Source: a virus. Taken from it: DNA of 64,000 nucleotides. The translations under genes and the position numbers were made by a program. Positions 22,181 to 63,779 of the stretch are shown one piece after another. Each line of letters opens with the position of its first letter. The first letter of the stretch is position 1. The notes beneath the pieces are model-generated. The model was not told the origin of the DNA and did not search any database. It saw only the letters and a list, made by a program, of their open reading frames with translations. Where the stretch lies: the IMG/VR virus record IMGVR_UViG_3300037041_000399, positions 1-64,000 of that record; one strand, given 5' to 3'.

Positions 22181-22196
22181 CCCGTTAAATTAACCC
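22181..22196 (+). promoter_or_regulatory. Class I motif, copy 3
   Basis: Exact CCCGTTAAATTAACCC upstream of scaffold/capsid; flanked by the inverted repeat GGGAGAC/GTCTCCC. Confidence 0.75.
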
Positions 22197-22265
22197 TCAG
22201 CCGTCTCCCCCTATATTATAATTAATTATAATGATATATAATATAATATATATCTCTTATATAAC

Positions 22266-37100: not shown

Positions 37101-39634
37101 TTAAAGACGCTTTCAAAGGTTTAATGAATCAAGATAAAGCGGATGGTAAGTCTGTAATAGGTACATTTGGCAACAAACTCAAAACATCAATTAAAGACCA
37201 AGTACTAAACACTGTTGCTGATTCATTTACTAATGTACTTGAATTAGGTAAAGGCGGTAAACTTACAAAAGTATTACAAAATGTAGGTAAGAATTTATTT
37301 AGTACTATTGGTTCAGCTGGTAGCGGCATTAAGAAGATTCTTTCAGGCAATATGACTATGGAAGGATTTACGAGTGGTATTAGCGACTGGTGGAGTGGAA
37401 TTACTGGCGGTGATACCACAGATACCTCTAATATGTCACCTGAAGAAATCCAGTTAACAGCTGCTGAGAAGTTTTCTAAAGCTGTCGATAAGTTTGCAAA
37501 TGGTGGTGTAGGCGGTGGCTTAGGTGGTATTGCCAAAGCTGCAGCTGGTGGTGGATTCCTTAGTGGTTTAGGTGATACACTTATGAGTGCCTTGCCGTGG
37601 GTTGCAGGTGGCGCTGGTGTGCTAGGTTTAGGTGCTTTACTGTCAGGCAGTGGAAAAGGGAGTTGGAACGAAGGCACTAAAGGTCTTGGTGGTGATTTCT
37701 TCTCTTCATTTAATGGTGGTAAATCATCTAGTGGAAATCCTACAAGTTTCTTAAATCCTGTTACAGGTATATTTGAAACAATAAGAGAAGGCGGTTCATC
37801 TCTTCTTAGCGGAGTAGGTAAAGCTGCATCTGGTAATTGGAATGCAGATACCTTTGCAGGCATTCGAAGTGGAAACATGGATAAAGGCACTGGAGTGTTT
37901 GATAGTGTTACCAATGGGTTATCTAGCTTATTACCTGGCTCGCAAACAGGAGATATCTCTACGAAGTCTATAACAGCTCTCGGTCAATCTATGCAAAATA
38001 GTTTGCCTGATGCTAAAGTAGAGGGACTATGGGATATTTTATTATCACCGCTTATGTTCTTATTTAAATTACTAAAAGATGGCTTTTTAGGGATAGTAGG
38101 GATGTTTACAGGCGTAGGTCAAGGAGTAGGTACAAGCTCTGGTACTGGTGAAAGCTCTACAAGTCCTTCTGCAGGCAATACATCTAAATCACCATTTAGT
38201 GGTATGTTTGGATTAGCTGCTGGTGGTCAAGTTAAAGGACCAGGGACTCCTACTTCAGATTCTATACCTGCACTACTATCTAACGGAGAGTTTGTAGTAA
38301 ATGCTAAAGCTACTAAAGATCATAGGGATCTTCTAGAAAAGATTAATAGTGGCAAGGTAATTAAACGTTCACTAGGTGGCATGATTGGTATGGGCGCTAG
38401 TTTAGCCGGTACATTTATGAAAGGCAAAACTGGTAGTCTTATTGGCACATTAGGCTCTGGTATTAGTGGCATAATGGGTATGATCGATAAACAGCAAGCC
38501 GCAGCTGCTAGTGAAAAGTTACTTGCAGCAGCTACACACCTAGAATCAGCTGCTACAGCATTAGAAAGTTTTGCAGCTAAGGGTGGTGTAGGTGGTGGTC
38601 TCCAATCAGCTGTCCAAGGTGAAGGTCAAGGCGGAGGTGGCGGTGGTCTGCTGCGAGGCGGTATTAAATCATTAATGAGCCAAGGGTCTAGTGGTGGTAT
38701 CATGGATTCTATTCAAGGCTTCTTTAGTAATGGATTAAATGCTGAGCACGGTACAGATGCACTAGGTGGACAATCATTTGGTGTATTACAATCAGATGCC
38801 AACGCAAGTGTTGGAAGTTATGGTGTTCTTGCTGCTGATGCTAACTCTTCTATCAATGGTGCTGCAGCTGGTAACAGCTTTGGCGTAATGGCTTCTGACG
38901 CTAATGGCGGAGGAATGTTTGATGGCTTAACTAGTATGTTCAGTGAAGGCGGTTCGCTTAGCAATATGTTTGGTGGATTAACCGATGGCATTTCAGGTAT
39001 GTTCCAAGGCTTAGTAGGTGGCGAAGGCGGTGGTGGCATTATGAGCATGTTCCAAGGCTTAGTCGGCGGTGAAGGTGGTGGCGGTATTATGAGCATGTTC
39101 AGCGGCCTCATAGGTGGCGAAGGCGGTGGTGGTATCATGGGTATGTTTAGCGGCCTCTTTGGTGGTGGTGGTGCAGGTGGCGCTCTTGGCGGCATTGGAG
39201 ATATATTTGGCAGTCTTATGAGTATGTTACCATTTGGCTTTGCTGATGGTGGCAGTGTAAGAGGCCCAGGCTCTAGCACCTCTGATTCAATACCAGCTAT
39301 GTTATCTAATGGCGAATTTGTTGTTAACGCAGCATCTACTCGAGAACATAGAGGATTATTAGAACATCTAAATAGCGGTAAGCCTCTGGCTAAACACTAC
39401 CTAGGCGGTTTACACTTAGCTGATGGCGGAATAGCTACTGCAGCTGCGCCTATAATGACCACACCTACTGCTAGTTCTGCCAAGCCGTTACGTAGCAATA
39501 AAGACTCTACAGTAGTAAATTTAAACATAACAGGCGATATATCTCGTCAAACTCGCGCGGAAGTTTACAAGCTAATCCCTAATATAACACAGGGCGTAAA
39601 CACGCATAATAAAGACAGCAACTATAAAGGATAA
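28154..39634 (+). CDS. Tape measure protein (3826 aa) with a lytic transglycosylase-like domain
   Basis: Tape-measure motif QLNQGLSSGALRGEELNSVLEQAP; long hydrophobic middle; SLT-like AVVEHES..FGLGQF..AY (about 35950-36310); twice GPGT/S.TSDSIPA.LSNGEFVVNA. Confidence 0.9.
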   Translation: MSGIVIEVEAKVSQAETSLERLNDVVRNITASLKAVDKGLENLSLKKEVPLDKTEKALNNLSPKIDKLQSSTDKLFKGSSNVDNRYSKEFVNIGVSAEMAGKRVEKAFNDITLKPNDAALKSFSFEIDRTSRKISKQMSEGISKKDLRDTESSLLNINKSITGISGNITSAVGSIGTAIAAFGSIATIGMFVKSLSDITSSFTEIESKIAMVTGRTVAFSEAQQALLKVAAETRTTYGATADAFSGVGRAMKDVGATSEQLFRVTKVLQQSQALSGGSSEGFKAAMMQLNQGLSSGALRGEELNSVLEQAPAIADALARSLHVSVGALKGIAEQGKLTTSVVFSSLLKQADYINDKFKAINPTLGNAMEAGFEGAKRFAFELDKGLGLSQDLAKAVSKLTSGLGTKTSGIRVFAADFDVQLKEAIIRVKSYMQPLTQVVTALGQEFYRVFSSWKIPEGSQKPLDDLIRKFTIFKFVLTHTDPGTDTKILFRKVETAIVDSVKTISDLLDKGIKLSDKFIMPIIDKIKDLYPKARKALLTTLDGLRSVIKESMSVLADGFEIGAEFVKPIIRELTKLPDQLILIFNKVAKALGSAASATSSLADGVADLLDSVTLKVGDLDGIYEYLNSFKDKVITIFFKIWDAVIGHSWWTDTIDSIIDTSKSLWEKASPGLIRFRDSIIALFKTIASTVTTAFNDAMVKLNIEPKSVSFKIPISIDDAKVQFEGVYDSFVKTFDKFKDDFPLLFKAIAAGVGAILVGMFLPSGNFVLLLEAALISASIQSATMFAETIGRDLGDASLLAGLGNNLGAAAGKLFASFLANMPLLVSAFLGFISEFTKEFLKQLPIIGVAFKALFGIAGAFGMAGPLGLVGAIFFGRGILGIMATFGFYTEAITGFMAKMAILGNFFGGGGGLISRLLFGAGRAWHFLPILGLIASLSGAFDALYNDSSLSALIINGGLIYFAIFGKGGLAGFAKIGMLVRANIVGILSEFTATAGLASSIAAGGAFGPMLMAGIRNFRNFFRGVSAMSAMFFSSSLSSWAQYFTRWIAVTGFSGNILRFFRTFYLNIFGPITAASYSFAPLAQSFVAAISAMKAAAVSFIMTARTAGIAMGGWLAALTRMLLGGPGILILVGLIASLFSKSADAAESFREESNKGFFENLTDNIANLDIIGYFRGLKDKLDAIDFGGMLGVNFKVSIYAALTAVTAALMLFSTNVRKTLMLLAGDLLVFSGKALFSIAALFSPVEVLAAGALLLKAGWWAGVNLNRGLTMGFALKDTIISIIMRLQATAALAGAMRTLGITMAVGLLGAFSAEAIGFADFSAMSVLGFTAIAAFIYPILNGLTVIPAAITAAFTGGTIMQAIGVLSARILLMFAPLGLAAAGAFAGAWAGGQFGDDMAMIGGLAGALLAFKFTESIMTGITEFLAVGARLMTLGWVGLALTAAGLIYAWLFGSDSTSLSQDLDSIIEKTRTLFGMKPNPVDFRTGLRLDDLQAAATMGIKIDYKIDPISAALASDSSKEAVTKATEDLAQAIRDAKADWDISGLTQDQRDLLQKKVKATAARVDAASASTPFVFKDFGKNLTQAQRYRPDTLWGQLQRQGAQAALDAEFEVKLKQLSIASRMPWNQTSAARLDLKSQRDAVSLSKDTTYNANYSPLDAETAKLAQLTKGFDNLGPVGPKMMAHLKDTGREIIALTKQINENKYWFWEHPNGKIWENAAPDPKLIAQMKMLRAEYKSTAEDIVRYSTLMKAAQSFAGRISSIASKFDMKGVESKLDTNKIFANSDTAVNRMEKLGEAAERLSKSLEGVFDVKAKNDIILNIEEVVKQKERLKEDSVQSYKYASPVIPKMAEELGLGAGKAAAGLPENISGPVLARMTELKRQREDFLNKPVRPVNPDLVPQDFVKETAQNKHETMVYQGDMRLWQTRKKNQETVIKTLEEEFANNKLGSTQAALIQAKREATKIQMEEPVKPALAMLDAKAQQAKMEKLRIEYKQKLEIYKNDNFEYFDKYMKNLVESFDLGDELRKELWSNVKTKPGQMADVANKLNIDIGDLYSTFGADVAAGLLQQADDVAAAIDRAMATQQYDKLPALKQRKAALTTRMATPEFKSRGAMAESMGLDQSLIPGISTDVLDSLEAGYKKIKEIDTYLEMNKNTISDATYQAKIQEKLNEQLSGKKAALDASFGRPSFELQARIGTNLTGAQLSLISQTDVDNLKAAELNLAKIKLDLDGSNANADTLTDYFKALADEAEARYQASRNAASKTGAGMMQSLADVNFSGASKLNLLPPAIVQNVIKLSNYIKDLRHNLEQPTSPEAFIAINKEIAKTEEALSSIRDQYTSLQDKISSVNEVFGVSFSNIDFVSLGSSLTSTLITVAQSLKTELAKEMEKGFLSVRAESIIKVLDSLTTTGTYLKFFADFKKNARESLTDGMKSAFDKIKSIAPNFGFSQNQFQMMDKGSRDQYSKQASDITALTAIQGLNGLTQNQTDIINQKQPVDEMMKQLIDSFDTNQLKQYEKLTSSPVDLQLKAADIQLEAAKMNLEAVKGKAPEVTTPFKEASKQTTERALATGPRSGVTSLAEMAKDIPWSANAPKPKFRPDVERWDSLIQDAVKEFPRVTVEMVKAVVEHESRGLNIKSGITPKPGYKETSFGLGQFNDATAKTFGVDKTDPASTIRGIAQYLSLNMKTFGNTRDAFRAYAVGPTGAKQGLGQDKADEFMTTLATGRAPKSAPVTTSPELIKPTAESVAKSIEVAVSKQGELSRAFNVDLMARIKEIGKQKPFEAYQLDKLQNQINPNVSTPAELLSTHGAKLGTDIVGQMNETQISLATSLNEKLMQVQQQFNANPSTALQQSITTYSEMLKAFTEGVTADAEELGIAKMVAFSSANSTNISKFLSRFSGISEELVMTMNEADKALAKNMTIIREDLKDKLAADAKAGKSTTATALKILDLSDNISDLGNKAMDAAKEIKTAGESFASGFTSSFKDAFKGLMNQDKADGKSVIGTFGNKLKTSIKDQVLNTVADSFTNVLELGKGGKLTKVLQNVGKNLFSTIGSAGSGIKKILSGNMTMEGFTSGISDWWSGITGGDTTDTSNMSPEEIQLTAAEKFSKAVDKFANGGVGGGLGGIAKAAAGGGFLSGLGDTLMSALPWVAGGAGVLGLGALLSGSGKGSWNEGTKGLGGDFFSSFNGGKSSSGNPTSFLNPVTGIFETIREGGSSLLSGVGKAASGNWNADTFAGIRSGNMDKGTGVFDSVTNGLSSLLPGSQTGDISTKSITALGQSMQNSLPDAKVEGLWDILLSPLMFLFKLLKDGFLGIVGMFTGVGQGVGTSSGTGESSTSPSAGNTSKSPFSGMFGLAAGGQVKGPGTPTSDSIPALLSNGEFVVNAKATKDHRDLLEKINSGKVIKRSLGGMIGMGASLAGTFMKGKTGSLIGTLGSGISGIMGMIDKQQAAAASEKLLAAATHLESAATALESFAAKGGVGGGLQSAVQGEGQGGGGGGLLRGGIKSLMSQGSSGGIMDSIQGFFSNGLNAEHGTDALGGQSFGVLQSDANASVGSYGVLAADANSSINGAAAGNSFGVMASDANGGGMFDGLTSMFSEGGSLSNMFGGLTDGISGMFQGLVGGEGGGGIMSMFQGLVGGEGGGGIMSMFSGLIGGEGGGGIMGMFSGLFGGGGAGGALGGIGDIFGSLMSMLPFGFADGGSVRGPGSSTSDSIPAMLSNGEFVVNAASTREHRGLLEHLNSGKPLAKHYLGGLHLADGGIATAAAPIMTTPTASSAKPLRSNKDSTVVNLNITGDISRQTRAEVYKLIPNITQGVNTHNKDSNYKG
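38999..39190 (+). repeat. 48-bp coding tandem repeat (about 4 copies) in the tape measure C-terminus
   Basis: MFQGLVGGEGGGGIMS / MFQGLVGGEGGGGIMS / MFSGLIGGEGGGGIMG / MFSGLFGGGG. Confidence 0.85.
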
Positions 39635-48399: not shown

Positions 48400-51102
48400 A
48401 TGTCAACTGACTATATAATGGTCGGAGATTCGTGGGTAAATACAAGTTCCAGTTCAATTACGGATGCTGTAACCTCGCAGGTAATTCCTGCGGGGGCTAC
48501 GGCTACGTGGACTGGTGATACTTGGATTATATCTGACAAACCTACGGCTTCAGGCTCAACAGCTCCTGCTAATCCCACAGAGGGGCAACAATGGATAGAT
48601 ACCTCAACTACGCCAGCAGTATTAAAGGTCTATCATCAATATTTGAATCCACAGTGGGTTTCAATATCCACATTTGTAACACAAGGTACTGATATTGGGG
48701 TAGCAAATGGTGCTACAAGGAACATGAATCAAGGGACATATGATTCAACAAAAACGTATATATTAGGTGATATTGTAACACTTGTTGGGAATAGTTGGAC
48801 ATGTTCTGTAGCAACTAGTGGTAATGCACCTCCTACAGATAGTACAACAGTATCAAATACTTGGTGGAAATTATTAGCAGCAAAGGGTACTGATGGTGCT
48901 TCAGTTACGATAGCTGATTTGTTATCAGAATCAGATGTAGTACCTGCAGATGCTGAGGGTAAAAATTATACACTTCCAACCGGTAATAAGTTACGGCTAT
49001 ATATTGGAGCTACCATTCAAACAGCTAATGTTACATACTCTGTTAGTAGTGCTCAATCAGGGTTAATAGCTGTCATCGATCCGACAGGTTCAATCAGCTT
49101 TAGTGGAACTTGGACAAGTGATTTAGCACAATTTACGTTTACTGCTACTTACTTCTCAGTGCAATATACGGCAGGTTATACAATAGCTAAAGCAAAGAAA
49201 GGCACTAATACTGTACTAGTGGATATCAAATCAGATGCTGACGTTATACCTGCAAAAACTGACGGTACTGGATTTACGCTACCAACTGGTAATGCCATTG
49301 TGGTTTATGATGGTGGAACATTAGTTACTAATCCTGTTAGCGGAACTGCTGTTATTTCATATAGTGTTGCAGCAACCCCATTAAACAGGCTTGGTCTAGC
49401 TATTGATAACTTTGGTAATATAACTTTAAATCAAAGTACAGGCGCATGGAACAGTGACGGCGAGTCTTTTACAATCAATACTACTTATAAGGGGATTACA
49501 TATACTAATATTTACACAATTGCTAAGGCTAAAGCGGGGGCTCAGGGCATTTCTACTTATCTAGCTTCTGTGTATTATAACGGTACGCCCTCAGGCGCTC
49601 CTACAGGTGGTTCATATAATTTTAGTAGTAATGTATTTACTGGTCCAACAACTGCTGGCTGGCAGAAAACTCCATTTGCTGCTACCACAACAGGGCAATA
49701 TGTATCAACACAGATATTCACATCTAATAATGGTGGGGTGTCTATATCATGGTCAACTCCTGTATTGTACAATAAGAATGGTATTGATGGTAATCCAGGT
49801 GGTCCAGGGACTCCGGGTACTTCATTTTATAGCGCTACTGTGTATTTGCAGTCACTAAGCACGCCTAGTGCGCCTACTGGTGGTTCTTATACATTTGGTG
49901 GTACATTGACAGCGCCAAGCGGTTGGTCTAAGACACAGCCTGCTACTACTACAACACCTACATGGAGTTGCGAGTATACGTTTAGTACGACAACAGCTGG
50001 TGCTACTGTAAACGGTGGTACATGGCAAAATGTTAAAATATGTGCTCAAAATGGTACTAATGGTGTTAGTATTAAAGGTGATCAAGGCAAATCAGCTACA
50101 CGCGCGTTCACTTTAAGTACAGTTGGTACTCCAGCTACTATTACAAATTACACAACAGATGGCGTAACAAGTCTACCTGCATCTACAGCTAATAGTTGGT
50201 CTAGTATAACTCTGTCTCCTAGTAATAACCAAGCGCAGTGGCAATCAGATGGCATAATAGACTATGTGACACAAAAAATTACATGGGGCGCACCTTACCT
50301 TACCGTATTTAAAGTTGATACATTATCTGCGTTTACGACTAATACCGGTGAATTAAATGTTACCGGAAATATTAATATGACATCTAATAGTATGGCTATT
50401 AGATCAGGTACTGCAGTCACATTTGGCAGTGCTGGCTATTATATGGGGTTAAATGCTAGTGGTAAAGCTTTGTTATCTATAATGGCTGATGCTAGTAATG
50501 GTATTAAATACGATGGGTCAACTAACACTATTTCATTACTAGGTAAAATAATTACTAGTGGAAATCTTGCTACTAACTCTGTATTAAATGACGCAATAAA
50601 AGCAGGAGAAGTAAGCACAGCTTCTGTAGCTACTAACGCTATTACAAACTATTGGTATAAGCTTCGACAAACAACAGATAATACTGGCTATCCTTATGCT
50701 GTACCAACAGCTGGTGCAATTACTTCAGATTCTTTTGACGAATTCACAGTAACCGCTGCAGGCGTATTAGAGATAACTATAATTAGTGTTGTGCAAAATA
50801 AATCAACATCTACTGCATATCGAATAGAAGGATGGACGTCTATCTCAAAGAATGGAACTTTTAAAGATACGCTTAGAGATACTAGATTTGAGGCATTGGA
50901 TGCTGGGGTTGCTAGTAATAACTTCCAAGCGGGTAACTCAGGCGGCACTTCAGGTTCAATGCGTAGTTTTGTAATAATGCAACAAATTGAAGTAGCAGCT
51001 AATGATAAGATTATTGTAAAAGTTTCGCACAGACCACATGCAAGTCAAAGTGTGTTGTTTGTAAAATCAAACAGTTATTCAGCTGTATTATATAAGAGAT
51101 AA
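48400..51102 (+). CDS. Tail fibre protein
   Basis: Thr/Ser/Gly-rich, internal duplications, short collagen-like G-x-x runs; followed by a fibre chaperone. Confidence 0.75.
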   Translation: MSTDYIMVGDSWVNTSSSSITDAVTSQVIPAGATATWTGDTWIISDKPTASGSTAPANPTEGQQWIDTSTTPAVLKVYHQYLNPQWVSISTFVTQGTDIGVANGATRNMNQGTYDSTKTYILGDIVTLVGNSWTCSVATSGNAPPTDSTTVSNTWWKLLAAKGTDGASVTIADLLSESDVVPADAEGKNYTLPTGNKLRLYIGATIQTANVTYSVSSAQSGLIAVIDPTGSISFSGTWTSDLAQFTFTATYFSVQYTAGYTIAKAKKGTNTVLVDIKSDADVIPAKTDGTGFTLPTGNAIVVYDGGTLVTNPVSGTAVISYSVAATPLNRLGLAIDNFGNITLNQSTGAWNSDGESFTINTTYKGITYTNIYTIAKAKAGAQGISTYLASVYYNGTPSGAPTGGSYNFSSNVFTGPTTAGWQKTPFAATTTGQYVSTQIFTSNNGGVSISWSTPVLYNKNGIDGNPGGPGTPGTSFYSATVYLQSLSTPSAPTGGSYTFGGTLTAPSGWSKTQPATTTTPTWSCEYTFSTTTAGATVNGGTWQNVKICAQNGTNGVSIKGDQGKSATRAFTLSTVGTPATITNYTTDGVTSLPASTANSWSSITLSPSNNQAQWQSDGIIDYVTQKITWGAPYLTVFKVDTLSAFTTNTGELNVTGNINMTSNSMAIRSGTAVTFGSAGYYMGLNASGKALLSIMADASNGIKYDGSTNTISLLGKIITSGNLATNSVLNDAIKAGEVSTASVATNAITNYWYKLRQTTDNTGYPYAVPTAGAITSDSFDEFTVTAAGVLEITIISVVQNKSTSTAYRIEGWTSISKNGTFKDTLRDTRFEALDAGVASNNFQAGNSGGTSGSMRSFVIMQQIEVAANDKIIVKVSHRPHASQSVLFVKSNSYSAVLYKR

Positions 51103-51105
51103 AAT

Positions 51106-51558
51106 ATGTACTATTTATTAATATTTGACAAGAATACAAAACTTTCAACAGGATCTGCCATTGTATCCGAATTGGAGAAAACTCCTGACTATATTCAAGT
51201 AGAACTTTCTGAGGATGAATTTTATAACCTTAAGAATAACTCTAATACGTTAAAGTATGAAAATGGGGAGATTAAAAAATATCTGCCAAGACCTTCGTTT
51301 GCGCACTACTGGGATAATAATCTCAATGAATGGTTATTAGACACTGCTCTCGAATTTAGTTTAAAATCTGATGAAGTAAGAGATTTACGTCTAGCTAAGT
51401 TAAACGAGTTAGATAAATTTACACAGAACCCCCTTCGTTGGATGAGCTTGTCAGATGAGCTTAAGAATCAGTTAGCGGTTTATAGGCAAGCTTTATTAGA
51501 CGTACCTCAACAAGAAGGTTTCCCATTAACTATAACTTGGCCGGAGAGTCCAGTATGA
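51106..51558 (+). CDS. Tail fibre assembly chaperone
   Basis: PRPSFAHYWD..W..VR..R...L..; YRQALLDVPQQEGFP..I.WP. Confidence 0.8.
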   Translation: MYYLLIFDKNTKLSTGSAIVSELEKTPDYIQVELSEDEFYNLKNNSNTLKYENGEIKKYLPRPSFAHYWDNNLNEWLLDTALEFSLKSDEVRDLRLAKLNELDKFTQNPLRWMSLSDELKNQLAVYRQALLDVPQQEGFPLTITWPESPV

Positions 51559-51737
51559 GTTATTTATTTGCACGATTAAAAGAGCCATCTACATGGTTTG
51601 GTATTATCTCATCTACTCTAGCATCATTAAGTGCTTTTAAAGTGGTAGAATTGTCACCAGAACAAATGGACGGTATATTAGCATTGTCTGTTGCCATCTT
51701 AGGTGGCGGACATGTAACTTCAAAGGATCCTGAATAA
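51555..51737 (+). CDS. Putative holin
   Basis: 60 aa, RLKEPSTW.G start, two hydrophobic segments, charged C-terminus. Confidence 0.6.
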   Translation: MSYLFARLKEPSTWFGIISSTLASLSAFKVVELSPEQMDGILALSVAILGGGHVTSKDPE

Positions 51738-51745
51738 AGGAGATT

Positions 51746-51770
51746 GCCCTGACTTCGGTTGGGGCTTTTT
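51746..51770 (+). terminator. Intrinsic terminator
   Basis: GCCCTGAC-TTCG-GTTGGGGC followed by TTTTT. Confidence 0.75.
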
Positions 51771-51773
51771 AAT

Positions 51774-52292
51774 ATGAAATTTAGAAAATCAAACATAAAA
51801 GAATTAAATAAATATTATGATGTAGCAATTGAGTGCTCATTATCAAGTAGAGTACCTGAATTTACATTAGACAAAGATTATGTACTTAAGGTGATATCAG
51901 ATCTAATGCATGGAGAATACTTTAGAGTAATAGAATACAAAGATGAAGTTGTTGGCTGGATGGCGGCTAATAAGAATAATGTACAGTTATATAATACCAG
52001 AGATGTATTATCAGTCACTAGTTATCAATGTATACTCAAAGGTCGTAAGGCAATTGAGGCACTAATAGATATTCATGAGGATCTATATGATTTTGCTATA
52101 TCTAGAAAGTATGAGCTAGTTGTAACCAATTCAGTACTTAATTCAAGGAATACATTTAATCGAATACTTACGCAAGAAGGCTGGCTGGATCGCAACAGCG
52201 TGTTACTGCGAAAAACCCCCCATTATTTGGCCAGTAGCGGGGGCAGACGTGCCGTTCGGCCTCAGACCATTACGGAAGCCATGGGGCGGTGA
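51774..52292 (+). CDS. GNAT-fold-like protein
   Basis: MKFRKS..(FRVIEYKDEVVGWM)..FNRIL..EGW pattern; weak. Confidence 0.45.
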   Translation: MKFRKSNIKELNKYYDVAIECSLSSRVPEFTLDKDYVLKVISDLMHGEYFRVIEYKDEVVGWMAANKNNVQLYNTRDVLSVTSYQCILKGRKAIEALIDIHEDLYDFAISRKYELVVTNSVLNSRNTFNRILTQEGWLDRNSVLLRKTPHYLASSGGRRAVRPQTITEAMGR

Positions 52293-52455
52293 AAACGGGG
52301 TAGAGAGGGGCAGATTTGCAAACTGGTCGCCTGTGGCACGCGGGGCGTGGGGCATGGCTGAGGGATCGGGGCGGCAGTTGCGGGGCAAGACGGGTGGTTT
52401 CTGGTTGCAGAATGGGTAGTTCTGTGGCTGGTTATCGCCCGTTTTTTACGCACCA
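52210..52455. other. GC/G-rich island at the late-to-early junction
   Basis: Abrupt GC rise in an AT-rich genome; seven GGGGC elements on the + strand. Confidence 0.7.
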
Positions 52456-52459
52456 CAAA

Positions 52460-52475
52460 CCCGTTAAATTAACCC
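52460..52475 (+). promoter_or_regulatory. Class I motif, copy 5
   Basis: Exact 16-mer at the start of the early-gene block. Confidence 0.75.
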
Positions 52476-52510
52476 TTCTCCGTTCCCCCTATATTATTAA
52501 TTCTAATAAT

Positions 52511-52545
52511 GCGGAAATAATAGTATCTTATATGAAGTACTATAA
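52511..52545 (+). promoter_or_regulatory. Class II motif, copy 1 (putative early promoter)
   Basis: GCGGAAA-TAATA-GTATCTTATATGAAGTAC-TATAA, 20 nt before an ATG. Confidence 0.65.
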
Positions 52546-52564
52546 TAACCTTTGGAGATACATT

Positions 52565-52960
52565 ATGTTAAGATTAATTGCTACAAAAGATCGTAAAACA
52601 ATTGCTGTTGTTTATGGTAACATCGTTGCAGATATGGCTGAGTTTTTACCTGTGTGGCGGTCACACAAGTGGTTTAACATTTATACAAACTTGGAATACA
52701 AGTCTTTAGAGGAATTCCTTTGGAAATCTCTAGAGGAGAATGATTCGTTGTTTCAATATAGACCTTGGGATGATCATTACTATGTGCCAACTACAATGAC
52801 TATTAGACACAACGGGCATGAGGCTTATAGCAGATTTATGCAGAATATTGATTGTACTTATACTTTGTATACTGTGTATGAAGACTTGACGGGCGTCGTT
52901 GCTAACTTTAAAGATAAGAAAGCTATTAAGAAATGGCTTAAAGAACAGGGGATTAAATAA
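52565..52960 (+). CDS. Early hypothetical protein
   Basis: ATG at 52565 after TTTGGAG; the upstream extension in the ORF track is unlikely. Confidence 0.6.
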   Translation: MLRLIATKDRKTIAVVYGNIVADMAEFLPVWRSHKWFNIYTNLEYKSLEEFLWKSLEENDSLFQYRPWDDHYYVPTTMTIRHNGHEAYSRFMQNIDCTYTLYTVYEDLTGVVANFKDKKAIKKWLKEQGIK

Positions 52961-53166
52961 TGAAATATGAAGTAGTTATACTCAATCAGAATGCTGATCT
53001 TTATACCAAGACAAGCTTATTAGACGCTTACTTAAACTTTGAAAAGTACACAAGTAAGATTGTAATTGCGGTAGACAAAGAAACAGGTGCTTTTAAACAT
53101 GTTGCTAATGTACAGCAATTAAGAGAAGTATCTGCAAGATTATTTTATATGGGAGAGTTCAAATGA
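52960..53166 (+). CDS. Early hypothetical protein
   Basis: 68 aa, TAATG coupling. Confidence 0.6.
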   Translation: MKYEVVILNQNADLYTKTSLLDAYLNFEKYTSKIVIAVDKETGAFKHVANVQQLREVSARLFYMGEFK

Positions 53167-53462
53167 GTACTGTAATGTTTATGATCGATGCAGTTTTAGA
53201 TATACGCGTTAGAACACACAGTGTGTTTGATTATGTTCTTTTTGAAGCTGAGTGCTACGATGAATGTATTACACTCCTGGACAGTGCTGATGCACGTCTT
53301 AGGGTTGGTGACAACTATTCATACAGCTGGAATCACGTTCACTGGGACGGACAAAGGCTGGAATCTTTTATAACTTTGTTAGATCTTATTGAGCATGACA
53401 AGTACAAACTTAACGTCCTAACAGAAGGACATCTATTTCAGCAAGGGGTATTAGTATTATGA
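53163..53462 (+). CDS. Early hypothetical protein
   Basis: 99 aa, ATGA coupling, GGAG RBS. Confidence 0.6.
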   Translation: MSTVMFMIDAVLDIRVRTHSVFDYVLFEAECYDECITLLDSADARLRVGDNYSYSWNHVHWDGQRLESFITLLDLIEHDKYKLNVLTEGHLFQQGVLVL

Positions 53463-53617
53463 GTGAATGGTATAGCTTTATTGAAGCAATGTTAACAATT
53501 GGTTTTTATTGTGTTTATGTGTTTTACAATGTGTTTGCAGAGCATTGCGAAGGACAGCGTAAGTATCGTAAAGTGCGTAGCTGGAATCGTTCAGCTATGC
53601 AAAAAGATTATAAATAA
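53459..53617 (+). CDS. Small early protein (not in ORF track)
   Basis: ATGA coupling; MSEWYSFIEAMLTIGFYCVYVFYNVFAEHCEGQRKYRKVRSWNRSAMQKDYK. Confidence 0.5.
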   Translation: MSEWYSFIEAMLTIGFYCVYVFYNVFAEHCEGQRKYRKVRSWNRSAMQKDYK

Positions 53618-53621
53618 AAAC

Positions 53622-53656
53622 GCGGAAAATGGGGTATCTTATATGAAGTACAATAA
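53622..53656 (+). promoter_or_regulatory. Class II motif, copy 2
   Basis: GCGGAAA-ATGGG-GTATCTTATATGAAGTAC-AATAA, intergenic. Confidence 0.65.
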
Positions 53657-53691
53657 GGTACCTCAATCAATTAATTATTTGGAGTATTATC

Positions 53692-54126
53692 ATGAACCTA
53701 TTGAACACAACAACAGCAACTACAGTAAACAACGTTAGTATCCGTTTCGCAGACAATGGCACACGTATTGAAATGCGTGGTGAGTTTGCAGCCATCCGCG
53801 AAGTAATCGCAAGCAACCCAGGAGTATGCATCGACATGGACATGTATCAAGAAGGCCTCGACGAAGTAGTCGGAGGTATCTTCAATCGTGATGCACAACG
53901 CATCATCCTTGAGTTGACCTCAATGGGTGTTGAGCTTGAGAGAGACGGCTACAACACTTTCCGTGAAACAGGCCTAATGAATAACGGCTTTGTTCGCATT
54001 CGTGTATCAGAAGTAAATCTTCAGTTGCTAGCTGGAGAATCAATAGCTCGCCAAACAGCTGTAGCGGATGCAATCGGCGCATCAGTTACAGGCTCAATGC
54101 GTGGCTATGTAGTCTCAATGTGGTAA
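53692..54126 (+). CDS. Early hypothetical protein
   Basis: 144 aa, TTTGGAG RBS. Confidence 0.65.
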   Translation: MNLLNTTTATTVNNVSIRFADNGTRIEMRGEFAAIREVIASNPGVCIDMDMYQEGLDEVVGGIFNRDAQRIILELTSMGVELERDGYNTFRETGLMNNGFVRIRVSEVNLQLLAGESIARQTAVADAIGASVTGSMRGYVVSMW

Positions 54127-54169
54127 ATGTATAAGATAGTGCCAACAACTAACTTTAAAGGTGAACAAC

Positions 54170-54316
54170 ATGAATCCAGTACAAGCAGCACAAGCAGCAG
54201 TAGACGCGAAATTATTAGCAATGAAGATCGAACATGATGCAAGAATTAAAGCATTAGATGAAGATAAAGAATTCGCTAAAATGCTAGCAGAAATGCAAGC
54301 TAAGCTTAAATGCTAA
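54170..54316 (+). CDS. 48-aa coiled-coil early protein (not in ORF track)
   Basis: AAAGGTG RBS; MNPVQAAQAAVDAKLLAMKIEHDARIKALDEDKEFAKMLAEMQAKLKC. Confidence 0.55.
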   Translation: MNPVQAAQAAVDAKLLAMKIEHDARIKALDEDKEFAKMLAEMQAKLKC

Positions 54317-54320
54317 TAAA

Positions 54321-54348
54321 AGACCTGAGTAGGTCTCTAAACTGCTTA
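54321..54348 (+). ncRNA. Small H-type pseudoknot motif, copy 1
   Basis: AGAC-CTGAGTAG-GTCT-CTAAAC-TGCTTA; loop TGAGTA pairs with TGCTTA; same geometry at 59406. Confidence 0.55.
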
Positions 54349-54403
54349 GTGTCTAAGGGATGTGTATCCCATACTGATGATGGTTCAAAAGAACCGAAAC
54401 ACT
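54348..54403 (+). ncRNA. Type III hammerhead ribozyme
   Basis: Stem III AGTGT/ACACT; GUC cleavage triplet (after C54353); stem I TA(A)GGGAT-GTGT-ATCCC(A)TA; core CTGATGA; stem II GGTTC-AAAA-GAACC; GAAA. Confidence 0.85.
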
Positions 54404-54423
54404 TAATTATTTGGAGTATTACT

Positions 54424-54600
54424 ATGTTTAACAAAATCAAAAATTATTTAAATGGCAACAGAAAAGAAATCGATGAAGCCAGAGAATTCCTTATCACATG
54501 GCAAGAAGGCCAAAAAGCTGCTGATGAACTAGTAGCTAAGTTTGAAGCAAAAGCCTTAGTAATGAAACTTGAAAGATTAGCGAGAGAACGTCATGCTTAA
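54424..54600 (+). CDS. Early hypothetical protein
   Basis: ATG at 54424 after TTTGGAG (MFNKIKNYL...). Confidence 0.6.
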   Translation: MFNKIKNYLNGNRKEIDEAREFLITWQEGQKAADELVAKFEAKALVMKLERLARERHA

Positions 54601-54784
54601 TGCTAAAGTGTTGGACTACACTAAAAAGTTCGGGAAAGAAGTTCTTAATGTTCTTCAAACACCTGTCTTTGAGATTAAAATTGGGGAACCCAAACCTCAA
54701 GAACCAACACAAGAAGTTAATGATAAAGCAGATGAATTAGCTGCTATGGTCGAACTCTTACAACGAAAATTTAATGGCTTATAA
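54593..54784 (+). CDS. Early hypothetical protein
   Basis: 63-aa overlapping ORF. Confidence 0.55.
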   Translation: MLNAKVLDYTKKFGKEVLNVLQTPVFEIKIGEPKPQEPTQEVNDKADELAAMVELLQRKFNGL

Positions 54785-54795
54785 AGGATATTATT

Positions 54796-55053
54796 ATGTT
54801 TACTTTTATTTCACACTTGTTCATGTCTCCATTTGAAATTTTTATGGAAACACTATTAAGCCCAATGGGTTTAATTATGATTGTAACGTTTGCATTAGCC
54901 ATTGTTGGTTACTTCAAAGTACGTCAAGCCAGAAAGAATCATGCGCACATTGTTGTTATCAACTTGTGGGAATTGATCTTCTGGGTATCAGTTGTTATAA
55001 CTTCAGGTTGTAACTTAGTATATGCAATCATGCATCCTTCAGTCTTTTGGTGA
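54796..55053 (+). CDS. Early membrane protein (2 TM)
   Basis: AAGGA RBS; two hydrophobic segments. Confidence 0.6.
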   Translation: MFTFISHLFMSPFEIFMETLLSPMGLIMIVTFALAIVGYFKVRQARKNHAHIVVINLWELIFWVSVVITSGCNLVYAIMHPSVFW

Positions 55054-55056
55054 TTT

Positions 55057-55227
55057 ATGAAATTAAAATTTGCTTTCTATACATTGCTAACTATTCTAGT
55101 AGCAATTACAATGCTGTATGTAGGTGCGCTTCTTTACAAAGTAGCGTTGTTGTTAATCGCGGTATTATTACTAATCATCGGATACCAAGTATCTGAATTA
55201 ACACGGAGATTTACAAATGGCAGCTAA
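55057..55227 (+). CDS. Small hydrophobic membrane protein (not in ORF track)
   Basis: MKLKFAFYTLLTILVAITMLYVGALLYKVALLLIAVLLLIIGYQVSELTRRFTNGS. Confidence 0.5.
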   Translation: MKLKFAFYTLLTILVAITMLYVGALLYKVALLLIAVLLLIIGYQVSELTRRFTNGS

Positions 55228-55534
55228 CATAAGGCTTCAAGGTTTCTATCCAGTAGCAACTGAAAAGGTTTTAAATGAAGAAGCTCCTGGGGATCTATTC
55301 TTATCTCCTTTAGTGTATAGGCATACCGTGCGTGAAGTTGATGCAAGTCAGTTAGTTGTAATGGAAGATGTAGAAAAATTCATGTGTGGTTCCGGATGGG
55401 ACTTCGCAGATGTAGTAGCTGTAGCAGATTTAACAGGAACAATTCCAATACCATTTTATGTGTTGAAGGAAAAGATTCCAAGGCTTTTAACCTTGGTTAA
55501 TAGGTACAAACCAAGATTTATAGAAACTGTGTAA
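55217..55534 (+). CDS. Early hypothetical protein
   Basis: 105 aa, GGAG RBS. Confidence 0.6.
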   Translation: MAANIRLQGFYPVATEKVLNEEAPGDLFLSPLVYRHTVREVDASQLVVMEDVEKFMCGSGWDFADVVAVADLTGTIPIPFYVLKEKIPRLLTLVNRYKPRFIETV

Positions 55535-55540
55535 AACAAA

Positions 55541-55595
55541 CCCTCTCTGGCTCCTTCGGGAGCTGGGGAGGGCTTTCTCTCTTATTTTTTTTTTT
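55541..55595 (+). terminator. Strong hairpin/terminator ending the first early block
   Basis: CCCTCTCTGGCTCC-TTCG-GGAGCTGGGGAGGG followed by a pyrimidine/T11 tract. Confidence 0.75.
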
Positions 55596-55792
55596 CTCAA
55601 ACTGCAAACTTTGTAACCTTAGCTCATAACTGATGCCTTCGGGCATCGAATCTTTGTAGTCTACCAGGACAGCTATGAAGAATATTCTACAGGATTCGAT
55701 TCTGTTATGTGCTTTAATTTTGTTTAATGGCATTCGTATTGAAACATTTACGATGTTTATCTTTTTAACCTTAATACTACCTAGGAATCATA

Positions 55793-58012
55793 ATGCGGAA
55801 TAAGTTATTAAAGTCTTTACGTACAAGAATTGCTGTAGAAATTGCACCACAATCTCCAATTAAGTTTTTAAAGAAGCTTGACATAGAAGAGCATCTAGAT
55901 GAGATTATTGCAAACACTTACTTGTACACAAGACCTAAAAAGGGTTCTGACAAGGAAATTATAATGTCAGAAGTAATTTGTATTATTGGGCACAATATGC
56001 GAAAGGGCGAAAAGAAAGATTCAGCTACAGCAGCCAGATGTGGTGCTTTTATTTTATACTCATTTGCAGAGCTAGGCCTCACAGAAATAGTAATGACTAG
56101 TGCAGCTAATGGCCACGGCACATACGTAGTTAAAGTCGTAGATGAAAAGAGTATGCAGGAATTATGGGAAACAGTATCTAGACAGGGTGGTAAGGGTAAA
56201 TTACCATCAGCAACACCATATGCAGATTGGACAAGTTTTAGGCATGATACAGGTGCCGTTTTAGTTAAGACACAATCAAAAGCTGTAGCAGAAATCTTAA
56301 CACCTGAAACACATCCAATTGTATTTGAGTCTATTAATAAAAGTCAAAGAGTAGGTTGGCTGATTAACAAAGAAGTCTATAATATTGCTAAGTGGGCTTT
56401 AAGTAACAAAACAGAAGCATTCAGTGATATTTGGGAACAGCATAATCCACAAGCACGTACAACTAAATTAAGAGAGACTAAAGCTATTCTTAGTATTGCA
56501 GACAAGTTTACTGATATTCCTTTTTACCATTTGTACTATCTAGACTTTAGAGGTCGTAAATATCCAACTACAGCGTATCTACATGAGCAGTCTTCTGACA
56601 TTGCTAAGGGCTTATTAATGCGTCAAGACAAGAAGGTTATTGGACAAGATGGTTTCTTTTGGCTATGCGTATCAATTGCAAGTAACTGGGCAGGTAACTC
56701 AGGTAGAGAAGATGGTGCTAAGACAGATAAAATACCTCTAAAAGACAGATATCAGTGGGTACTAGACAATGAAGAAATTCTGACAGCGTATGCACTTTCG
56801 CCTAAGCTAAATCAAGGCTGGATGGAAGCTGATAAGCCTTGGCAATTCTTAGCTGCTTGTATTGAGCTTAAGAACGCGTTAAGTATGGGTTCTAGTTATC
56901 TTCAGTATGAGTCTCATGTAGAGTGTTTCATTGACGGTTCTACTAATGGCTCACAGCATTTAAGTGCTCTCACTAGAGATGAAATTACAGCACCATATGT
57001 TAATTTAGTACCATTAGAAATGCCTGGAGATTTATATGCATACGTGGCTAACCATGTGTGGAGTAAAATCTCGACTATTGTAAATGCAATGTCGCCAAGC
57101 TTAGTATTAGAGTGTGAAGAATTTATTGATGGATTAATAGCGTTAAAAAGAAAGATTGTTGCGGCTGAACCCAAATCAGAGTTACGTAGTCAATTAGTGT
57201 CACAAATAAGAGCATACAAAACAAAATGGACAGATGTCGGTGAAAAGGCTTCTCCAGTATTTTGGCATAGAATTAAAGATAGTAAGCAACGTAGAAAGAT
57301 TGTTAAAAGGAATGTAATGACATTACCGTATGGCGGTTCAGGGTATGGCTTGTCAGAACAACAAATTGATGATTCTAAAAAGCATGGTATAGAATTGTTA
57401 ATGAATATGGAACACAAATGGGCATCATGGATGGGACGATTAGTATTTGAAGATGCTAAAGAATCTTTACAAAGACCTATGATGCTATTAGAAGTATTTG
57501 AGAAAGCTGGAGCAGCTGCTGAGAAGAAAGGTAAATTCTTAGAGTGGACAGTGCCTGTTACAAATTTCCCTGTAGTGCAAAATTATACAGAAGGTCGTAC
57601 TAAAAAGATACATATTCAATGGGGTCCGAGAATTGGCATTAGGAGTGAAACCACCGGATACTTTGGAAATGATATACAATTACATATATGTTTTATTGAG
57701 GATCAAGTACCCTCAAAAGGAAAGCAGTCCCAAGGAGCAGCACCAAATGTAATCCATTCATTGGATGCAGCGCACTTAGCGATGACAACAGCTAAATGCG
57801 ATTTTCCTATTACGACTATACATGATTCCTATGGCTGCCTGCTTGCAGATATGCCTAAGCTATATCAATGTGTGCGTGATACTTTTGTCGAGCTTTACCA
57901 AGAGAATCCTTTGTTTCCCCTGATCGATAAGATAAATGGCGATTTAAGCTATTTAGATATGGGTGAGCTGGATGTTAATTTAATTCTAGAAAGTGAATAT
58001 GCTTTCGCATAG
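55793..58012 (+). CDS. T7-family single-subunit DNA-directed RNA polymerase (739 aa)
   Basis: DFRGRKY, DKPWQFLA, DGSTNGSQHL (A), RKIVKRNVMTLPYG (B), PNVIHSLDAAHL, IHDSYG (C). Confidence 0.95.
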   Translation: MRNKLLKSLRTRIAVEIAPQSPIKFLKKLDIEEHLDEIIANTYLYTRPKKGSDKEIIMSEVICIIGHNMRKGEKKDSATAARCGAFILYSFAELGLTEIVMTSAANGHGTYVVKVVDEKSMQELWETVSRQGGKGKLPSATPYADWTSFRHDTGAVLVKTQSKAVAEILTPETHPIVFESINKSQRVGWLINKEVYNIAKWALSNKTEAFSDIWEQHNPQARTTKLRETKAILSIADKFTDIPFYHLYYLDFRGRKYPTTAYLHEQSSDIAKGLLMRQDKKVIGQDGFFWLCVSIASNWAGNSGREDGAKTDKIPLKDRYQWVLDNEEILTAYALSPKLNQGWMEADKPWQFLAACIELKNALSMGSSYLQYESHVECFIDGSTNGSQHLSALTRDEITAPYVNLVPLEMPGDLYAYVANHVWSKISTIVNAMSPSLVLECEEFIDGLIALKRKIVAAEPKSELRSQLVSQIRAYKTKWTDVGEKASPVFWHRIKDSKQRRKIVKRNVMTLPYGGSGYGLSEQQIDDSKKHGIELLMNMEHKWASWMGRLVFEDAKESLQRPMMLLEVFEKAGAAAEKKGKFLEWTVPVTNFPVVQNYTEGRTKKIHIQWGPRIGIRSETTGYFGNDIQLHICFIEDQVPSKGKQSQGAAPNVIHSLDAAHLAMTTAKCDFPITTIHDSYGCLLADMPKLYQCVRDTFVELYQENPLFPLIDKINGDLSYLDMGELDVNLILESEYAFA

Positions 58013-61829: not shown

Positions 61830-63779
61830 ATGATGAATTATATATTCGATGTAGAGACAGATGGTCTCTTACCTAATGTAACACGCATGTGGATTATGGT
61901 CGTTAAAGATCTAAGTACAGGAAAGAAAACACGCTACTTAGAAGGAGACTTTGGTTGGAAAACTCTATTTAACAATGCTAACCAGCTAATTGGGCACAAT
62001 ATAATTGGGTATGATATTTGTGTGCTAGAGAAATTGTTTGGATACAAAGTACCTGAGAAGACTAAAATAGTTGACACATTAATTCTTTCTCAAGTATTAG
62101 ACTACAAACGTTTCGGAGATAAAGGACACTCACTAAAAGTATGGGGTGAACATCTAGGGTATCCTAAGCAAGAATTTGAAGACTGGACACAGTATTCAGA
62201 AACTATGGCTGAGTATTGCGAAAACGACGTAGAGGTTAACTTCAGAATCCTAAAAGACTTACGGGATGAACTTAAGAAAGGTGAAGAGAAGTATCCAGAG
62301 CAGTTTAAAGTCTTGACACAATATATCAAGGTAGAACATGCTGTAGCTAAATGGTGCGCTGAAGCTAGTCTTCATGGGTGGCCTTTCGATACTAATAAGG
62401 CTTATGAACTTTACGATGAACTCGAAGCAAAGATGAATAGTACTTATGAGATTCTGAATAAAAAGCTAGGTCTTAAGGTAGTTGCAGTTGACAAGAAGCT
62501 TGGTGTAGTAGAAGCTAAAAAGCCTAAGTACAAGAAAGATGGTAGTTATGATGCGCATACAGCTAGGTGGTTTGATGTCAATCCTTGGAGTGGCTTTGAG
62601 CCTGAAGATAGAATTGTTGATGGCGAGTATTGTCGTATTACGATTGAACCTCTTAGTCTTAATTCTGTAACTGATGTAAAGGTATTCTTGTATAGGCACG
62701 GCTGGAAACCAACAGATTGGAACTACAAGCTAACTGAAGACTTAAAGCGTGAAAGAACAACACCTAAGATTACTGAAGATAGTTTAGAATTCTTAGGTGG
62801 TGATGGCAAGTTGTATAGTAACTATTTAACTGAAAAAGCAAGGCATTCGATTGTAAAAACATGGTTGGAGAATGTAGATGGCAATAGTAGACTTCATGGA
62901 GACTGTATGGTTATCGGGACCCCTAGTATGCGTTCACGTCATAGTATTATTGTTAATATCCCTAGTCCTGATGCTCCATACGGGAAACAAATGAGAGCAT
63001 TGTTTAAATGTATCCCTGGTTGGAAAGTAGTAGGCTGTGATAGTGCTGGTAATCAAGCTAGAGGTCTAGCACATTTCTTAGAAGATGAAGGCTTTACAGA
63101 TATCTTACTTAATGGTGATATTCATACCTTTAATGCAGATACTCTCAATCGTATCTTGAAAGAAACACTTAATATAGATTGGAATGACTACTGGATTAAG
63201 CAAGGTGTAACGGCAGATGAGAAGCATACTCTAGAAGAGAATCTAGCATTAAGAAGAAGAAATTGTGCTAAGCGTGTATTATACGCTTTCTTATTTGGTG
63301 CCTCAGGTGGTAAGCTTTGGAGCTATATGTTCAATGGTGAAATGAATGATACAAAGGGTGCTAAAGTTAAGAAAGAGTTTATTAAAGCCGTGCCAGGATT
63401 CAAGGCACTCTTAGATAAGCTTGAAGCTATCTTTGGTAAAACGAAACAGAGAGGACTTGGGTATATCCCTAGTCTAGCGCACAATAGGGTATACGTAGAC
63501 TCCTTTCATAAACTATTGGTGTATCTCTTACAATCCGCAGAAAAGATTACTTGTGGTGCAGCTTGTATGCTAGTACAACAGTATCTTAAAGAAGAGAAAA
63601 TTCCGTATCAACCTTTGATTATGTACCATGATGAATTCCAATTAATGGTACCAGAGGAATATGCAGAACGTGCAGTAGAGCTTGGCATTAAGGCTTTCCA
63701 AGAAGGCCCTAAACTATTTGGAGTCACTATCATGGATGGCTCTGGTTCCTTTGGCGATAATTGGTTGGAGACACACTAG
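61830..63779 (+). CDS. DNA polymerase, family A (T7 gp5-like)
   Basis: Exonuclease motifs DVETDG, GHNIIGYD, YCENDV; polymerase motifs CDSAGNQAR, AKRVLYAFLFG, YHDEFQ. Confidence 0.93.
   Translation: MMNYIFDVETDGLLPNVTRMWIMVVKDLSTGKKTRYLEGDFGWKTLFNNANQLIGHNIIGYDICVLEKLFGYKVPEKTKIVDTLILSQVLDYKRFGDKGHSLKVWGEHLGYPKQEFEDWTQYSETMAEYCENDVEVNFRILKDLRDELKKGEEKYPEQFKVLTQYIKVEHAVAKWCAEASLHGWPFDTNKAYELYDELEAKMNSTYEILNKKLGLKVVAVDKKLGVVEAKKPKYKKDGSYDAHTARWFDVNPWSGFEPEDRIVDGEYCRITIEPLSLNSVTDVKVFLYRHGWKPTDWNYKLTEDLKRERTTPKITEDSLEFLGGDGKLYSNYLTEKARHSIVKTWLENVDGNSRLHGDCMVIGTPSMRSRHSIIVNIPSPDAPYGKQMRALFKCIPGWKVVGCDSAGNQARGLAHFLEDEGFTDILLNGDIHTFNADTLNRILKETLNIDWNDYWIKQGVTADEKHTLEENLALRRRNCAKRVLYAFLFGASGGKLWSYMFNGEMNDTKGAKVKKEFIKAVPGFKALLDKLEAIFGKTKQRGLGYIPSLAHNRVYVDSFHKLLVYLLQSAEKITCGAACMLVQQYLKEEKIPYQPLIMYHDEFQLMVPEEYAERAVELGIKAFQEGPKLFGVTIMDGSGSFGDNWLETH

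Follow-up and report, generated by a model that had tools for sequence, protein, structure and literature searches.

A strongly conserved two-part early element in uncultured long-tailed phages, and a candidate promoter for a MuF-fused, putative virion RNA polymerase

Twice at the head of its early gene block this phage genome carries the same short motif, and the question is whether that motif is a promoter and, if so, whether it is read by the host RNA polymerase or by one of two polymerases encoded by the phage itself. The window, by which we mean the whole stretch of 64,000 nt that was analysed, comprises bases 1–64000 of a 78,236-bp IMG/VR virus record; a 127-bp terminal repeat in the record resembles an assembler overlap, and the start of the record is therefore arbitrary. 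All genes lie on the + strand, and the window contains no tRNAs. The first polymerase (16196–21511, + strand, 1771 aa), in which a single-subunit RNA polymerase of very divergent sequence (PF00940) is fused to a MuF head domain (PF04233), is here called MuF-RNAP. The second, RNAP2 (55793–58012, + strand, 739 aa), is a T7-like single-subunit enzyme (PF00940, E 1.9e-68) that matches T7 RNA polymerase in phmmer searches (E 2e-44). Other landmarks are a tape measure protein (a 3826-aa ORF, 28154–39634), a family A DNA polymerase (61830–63779), and an early block of small + strand ORFs (52565–55534, consisting of 52565–52960, 52960–53166, 53163–53462, 53459–53617, 53692–54126, and 54310–55534), none of which, among those tested, matched Pfam. 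The nearest deposited phage records are EBPR siphovirus 1, an uncultured phage from sludge whose partial record is without the early region, and the cultured roseophages DSS3_VP1 and DSS3_PM1 (Naomviridae).

Within the window there are exactly two sites for the 18-mer GTATCTTATATGAAGTAC, 52523–52540 and 53634–53651, both on the + strand. This count does not change when up to three mismatches are allowed, and the whole 78,236-bp genome holds the same two sites only. The heptamer GCGGAAA is likewise confined, on either strand of the genome, to 52511 and 53622, and in both cases 5 nt separate it from the 18-mer downstream. Copy 1 of the complete motif, which we call class II, occupies 52508..52537 on the + strand (box AATGCGGAAAT at 52508–52518, a 3-nt spacer, core AGTATCTTATATGA at 52522–52535, then AG), and copy 2 occupies 53619..53648 on the same strand (box AACGCGGAAAA at 53619–53629, spacer, core GGTATCTTATATGA at 53633–53646, then AG). 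Both are intergenic, and downstream of each comes GGAG and then an ATG, at 52565 for copy 1 and at 53692 for copy 2, which begins 4 nt past a stop codon. In agreement with the initial annotation, there are thus two equally spaced copies, at 52511 and 53622, each before the ribosome binding site (RBS) of an early gene. Heading the early block, they precede the RNAP2 gene by 3.3 and 2.2 kb, a layout that is the same in relatives, and the structural/late region of this genome contains no class II copies.

Since there are just two copies here, 1.1 kb apart, a chance repeat or a recent local duplication without function would be the simplest account. However, the 5-nt spacer differs between the copies at all five positions (TAATA versus ATGGG) and the outer flanks are unrelated, so that fully diverged sequence separates and surrounds perfectly conserved blocks; this argues for conservation of the blocks and not for recent duplication. 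Related phages carry many further instances, described below, and a look-alike exists in the Naomviridae. The local duplication that had been named as a possible refutation is ruled out by these data, and the probability that the motif is a functionless repeat of any sort is practically negligible.

Conservation in related phages had been proposed as a check, and it was readily found. The exact 18-mer is present at 33 IMG/VR loci, and a profile search upstream of RNAP2 homologues recovered diverged class II copies where RNAP2 is only 47–61% identical. Altogether we obtained 77 distinct instances in promoter-like context from related IMG/VR contigs; these are all the core matches collected, copy 1 being aligned with 76 others. 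The consensus is bipartite, with the box wwYGCGGaAAA, 3–4 variable bases, the core RGTATCTTATATGA, and then (A/T)R. Eleven alignment columns are invariant (G.A.CTTATATGA within the core) and seven more are at least 90% conserved. The box lies at a fixed distance and is conserved although it was outside the selection pattern. Past the core comes A or T, then always a purine, and then an A-rich, purine-rich stretch. The core is unchanged even where RNAP2 is 47–61% and MuF-RNAP 59–72% identical; promoters of the T7 group are usually less stable across such polymerase divergence. The class II motif is a strongly conserved two-part early element in a large family of uncultured long-tailed phages.

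Genomes of this family carry one to five class II copies, all on one strand, which is that of the polymerase genes. The next ORF begins a median of 47 nt after the core end or predicted start, the distance to the RBS varies, and many copies directly follow a hairpin plus T-run. Most are found in the 4 kb that precede the RNAP2 gene. Restriction to the early region, as initially described, holds in this genome and does not hold in some relatives, where extra copies precede accessory or replication-region genes; in two relatives these head replication-region accessory genes, for example a homologue of ORF 74937–75512 of this genome. Class II was never seen in the structural modules of the relatives.

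Conservation, orientation on one strand, position before ORFs, and the hairpin/T-run context together form the signature of a promoter, and on this basis we infer that class II is one. A contiguous conserved block ending at a purine and followed by purine-rich sequence is the pattern of T7/SP6-type promoters, and class II resembles promoters of the T7/T3/SP6 group (Autographiviridae) in its contiguous block ending at a purine start, its purine-rich initial sequence, its strict orientation before genes, and the hairpin terminator that often lies upstream. Two further properties expected of a T7-family promoter were also found, namely a conserved co-oriented block in all the aligned instances and phage-encoded single-subunit RNA polymerases, here two. 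Class II differs from that group in being about 30 bp long instead of 23, in being bipartite with a variable spacer, in serving early and not middle or late genes, and in its presumed reader, a 1,400-aa polymerase for which phmmer finds no similarity to T7 RNA polymerase. We would accordingly picture class II as a duplex-DNA promoter of ~30 bp, with the box at about −26 to −16, a short variable spacer, and the core RGTATCTTATATGA, at whose final G or A transcription would start before running into the purine-rich leader. The start is probably at or adjoining G 52534 in copy 1 (G or A, 52534/52535) and G 53645 in copy 2 (G or A, 53645/53646). Taken as a promoter alone, class II would be an ordinary kind of element.

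The type of promoter is a separate matter. Phage N4 uses a virion RNA polymerase, gp50, and then RNAPII, and the capsid-delivered enzyme acts at early hairpin promoters near the genome end that enters first. The initial annotation had noted an imperfect inverted repeat in the class II core, GTA[T]CTT-ATATG-AAGTAC, and had likened the sites to N4 promoters. The repeat is indeed present in both copies here, but it is not conserved. Counted over all 77 rows of the alignment, 65% of cells are paired, compared with 64.7% after shuffling; at two of the six pairs most sequences do not match, and there is no meaningful covariation. The left arm, GTA.CTT, never varies, whereas the right arm varies freely (AAAGAC, AAGAGA, ATAAGC, and others). 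Because the stem is not conserved and complementarity between core and downstream sequence is at shuffle level, an N4-type hairpin promoter is not supported, and class II looks like a duplex-DNA promoter. The likeness to N4 lies elsewhere, in a capsid-delivered single-subunit polymerase presumed to act at early promoters that are few, clustered at the head of the early region, and upstream of a block with the gene for a second phage polymerase, the enzyme presumed to act next. N4 promoters, unlike class II, are DNA hairpins with a 5–7-bp stem and a 3-nt loop that need supercoiling and SSB. Moreover, the polymerase here is fused to MuF, whereas enzymes of the N4 gp50 type are 3,500-aa proteins, and late genes here appear to use the second phage polymerase, whereas those of N4 use the host enzyme.

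A longer palindrome exists at copy 2. Here the motif is followed by a clade-specific conserved leader, AGTACAATAAGGTACCTCAA (53647..53668, + strand), which close relatives keep before many different genes. Core and leader together (53631–53665) form an imperfect 12-bp palindrome with G-U pairs, the RNA of which folds at −15.2 kcal/mol (z −4.4) and could form only in read-through RNA from copy 1. As a general feature of class II this palindrome was rejected, because in the other 53 instances complementarity equals that of shuffles and the structure belongs to the close clade only. The same palindrome and stable fold are what would recommend a non-promoter function, as an early-repressor operator bound by a dimeric protein, as an RNA processing or stability element (for instance an RNase III-type site on read-through RNA), or as a replication or packaging signal. 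Its restriction to one clade speaks against this, as do the strict orientation, the variable distance to the RBS, and the frequent position after terminators, and several dispersed copies per genome are unsuited to a packaging site or an origin. We consider a non-promoter role very unlikely. A search of positions 50000–56000 against Rfam (E ≤ 1) gave no match.

A second motif, class I, bears on which polymerase would read class II. Class I (CCCGTTAAATTAACCC) has seven copies in the genome (245, 345, 22181, 22266, 52460, 60765, and 74859), all intergenic and on the + strand, which head the terminase, capsid, early, replication, and accessory blocks. More than 119 IMG/VR loci contain it, and the relatives that carry class II have it in unchanged form. 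Contained within it is AATTAACCCT, the upstream half of the T3 promoter. Class II copy 1 is preceded at 51 nt by a long form (52460..52508, + strand), in which CCCGTTAAATTAACCC is followed by a tail that is C-rich and carries TATATTAT, so that RNAP2 or the host polymerase could also enter the early block. The succession of class I and class II within about 35–60 nt recurs in relatives, and copy 1 belongs to a subtype that is always preceded by the class I long form. No class I short form lies between class II and the RNAP2 gene. The long forms at 245–293, 22181–22229, and 52460–52508 share a conserved tail, (T)CCGTYCCCCCT-TATATTAT-AATT, which might act as a terminator or pause element or might mark a third class of promoter, of host type. 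A sigma70-like TTAACC-17-TATTAT is found inside the long form at 52469–52497.

Host RNA polymerase is one possible reader of class II, either through a weak −10-like TATCTT/TATATG or together with a phage activator at the TGCGGAAAA box. TATCTT satisfies TAnnnT, the DSS3_VP1 version contains a perfect TATAAT, and if the core held a universal −10, its constancy among divergent phages would be accounted for. The T4 MotA box, wwwTGCTT, serves an activator of T4 middle promoters; the class II box, wwwTGCGG, lies about where that box would be, and in the alignment of the 77 its position is compatible with a MotA-type layout. Against this, a sigma70 scan found no −35/−10 pair at either copy, bearing out the initial remark that no such pair is shared, and TATCTT is the only −10-like element, scan and direct reading agreeing that neither copy has a −35 hexamer at 16–18 bp. 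The contiguous 14-bp core is conserved at positions that sigma70 does not read, and conservation extends past the presumed start. An activator would be needed before any early gene is expressed, and the sigma70-like site in the class I long form is the sole evident earlier promoter class. The phage, moreover, already has a candidate virion polymerase. Recognition by the host enzyme is, in our judgement, fairly unlikely.

The phage polymerases offer another solution. The gene for the MuF fusion belongs to the head module, as one would expect for a packaged protein, and MuF-RNAP is a candidate virion polymerase. Its residues 351–1771 gave no PDB match with phmmer and no detectable similarity to T7 RNA polymerase; MuF-RNAP and RNAP2 can be aligned only around motifs A and C, and by this comparison they are too divergent to share a promoter specificity. 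The initial annotation had postulated two promoter classes for two polymerases. Two motif classes are confirmed, their distributions fit a relay of two polymerases, and the phage encodes two very divergent single-subunit enzymes. In the relay that we propose, capsid-delivered MuF-RNAP would read the two class II copies heading the early operon, giving transcripts of the early genes and of the RNAP2 gene; RNAP2 would continue from the T3-like class I promoters in front of the replication, terminase, and capsid modules. The proposed assignment of class II to MuF-RNAP rests on this wiring, with class II in front of the RNAP2 gene block and the T3-like class I in front of the middle and late modules; that of class I to RNAP2 rests on the pairing of a T3-like motif with a T7-like enzyme. 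Counting against the relay are the class I long form close to copy 1, a strong terminator-like hairpin that separates the early ORFs from RNAP2, and a core more stable than is usual for promoters of the T7 group. On balance we lean, by a modest degree, towards this relay with virion MuF-RNAP as the reader of class II.

The same two motifs and two enzymes could be paired the other way round, with RNAP2 reading class II to amplify its own operon and MuF-RNAP reading class I. The long form of class I does precede the early block, and co-occurrence cannot separate the pairings: in ten of the ten relatives checked, class I, class II, MuF-RNAP, and the second polymerase are all present together, and the reader of class II is not assignable by this route. 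Such a reversal would, however, have the injected enzyme fire at the terminase and capsid promoters from the outset and would leave a dedicated second polymerase with just a few early genes. It would also pair the T3-like class I with an enzyme that has no similarity to T7 RNA polymerase detectable by phmmer, when RNAP2 is T7-like, and the class-I-like motif of the DSS3 phages ends in TTAAAG-AGGGG, which is typical of T7-group promoters. We regard the reversed pairing as decidedly unlikely.

Among the ten family members there was no genome with one polymerase or one motif only, and a wider search with the C-terminus of MuF-RNAP returned only relatives with at least 61% identity. T7-like contigs without MuF-RNAP and class II, considered as a natural knock-out, proved to be unrelated phages (RNAP2 26–32% identical). 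Covariation between promoter and polymerase was not usable, both motifs being invariant across the family, and base-specific residues of the RNAP2 specificity loop taken from an alignment with T7 were unreliable owing to a 10–12-aa insertion in the loop. Relatives were also found as assembled contigs in three lake-water metatranscriptome runs from one study, in which coverage is not evidence of transcription. One such contig extends 47 nt upstream of a class II motif; as assembled contigs are without usable ends, these data give no start sites.

The proposed relay has a parallel in Thermus phage P23-45. According to the published account (PMC10770324), a virion RNA polymerase fused to the tape measure protein of P23-45 transcribes the pre-early genes, including the gene for a non-virion RNA polymerase. 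Both phages are long-tailed, with a virion polymerase (here a candidate one) fused to a structural protein, but the P23-45 enzymes are related to cellular multisubunit RNA polymerases and the partner is the tape measure, whereas both enzymes here are of the T7 family and the partner is MuF.

A closer counterpart is found in DSS3_VP1 and DSS3_PM1, which share MuF-RNAP (31% identity; gp108 in DSS3_VP1), the second polymerase (33%), the gene order, and two motif classes in matching positions. Their class-II-like motif, GnGrAAA-N5-GCATCTATAATGA, has the same spacing and two or three copies, the first two of which head the block with the RNA polymerase gene; the GCATCTATAATGA sites are at 35809, 36256, and 67793 in NC_055826.1 and at 54342 and 54789 in MN602267.1. 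A T7-like GGGTGCGTTAAAG-AGGGG motif is present in about 11 copies, in the middle and late regions only. The DSS3 core differs from that of class II at three positions, and hosts and habitats differ too. The published description of the two phages does not mention polymerases or promoters, and our literature search found no paper with these motifs, the MuF-RNAP fusion, or the Naomviridae polymerases.

If the assignment is true, class II would be a defined template on which the MuF-fused polymerase could be tested as a working virion enzyme, and a type of promoter unlike those of T7 and unlike the hairpins of N4. Both the cultured Naomviridae and a large group of uncultured long-tailed phages with a global distribution would then start infection without the host RNA polymerase, and the orthogonal polymerases and promoters, as a pair, might find use as expression tools. 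A broader proposal is that class II is the site of a virion RNA polymerase of a kind not described before, in which a T7-family enzyme is tethered to a MuF head protein and acts on an unusually long bipartite duplex promoter that has hardly changed between freshwater phages and the Naomviridae, which are marine and have uracil-DNA; this would make these long-tailed phages fully host-independent two-polymerase systems. This proposal we hold with evenly divided confidence.

Several other features of the locus and of the genes discussed here deserve mention. Past the last early ORF and ahead of the start codon of RNAP2 there is a 14-bp GC-rich hairpin with a long T-run (55541..55572 within 55541–55600, + strand), terminator- or attenuator-like. 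Relatives with an 85% identical RNAP2 also have a hairpin and T-run at that site and share GATTCGATTC there, which suggests attenuated read-through into the polymerase gene. Within the early block, 54348–54403 contains by eye the elements CUGAUGA, GAAAC, and GUC of a type III hammerhead-like RNA, for which the Rfam search of 50000–56000 (E ≤ 1) gave nothing. The ~300 nt at 52190–52460, which immediately precede the class I long form and the early block, have roughly 60% G+C against 38% in the genome. This GC-rich segment has no Rfam match, is 92% conserved in the closest relatives, and is 76% identical over 104 nt in the clade with the 85% identical RNAP2; the physical end of the genome, an origin, or an RNA may lie there. 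The polymerase part of MuF-RNAP carries an in-frame insertion of ~230 aa (aa 1103–1333, 19502–20194) that is missing from most relatives, whose proteins are about 1540–1550 aa long, and shared by one; an intein and an inserted domain are both conceivable. In EBPR siphovirus 1 an HNH endonuclease gene lies between two halves of the MuF-RNAP homologue. Finally, four tandem 48-nt repeats at 38951–39180, near the C-terminus of the 3826-aa tape measure protein, code for a glycine-rich unit of the MFxGLxGGEGGGG type.
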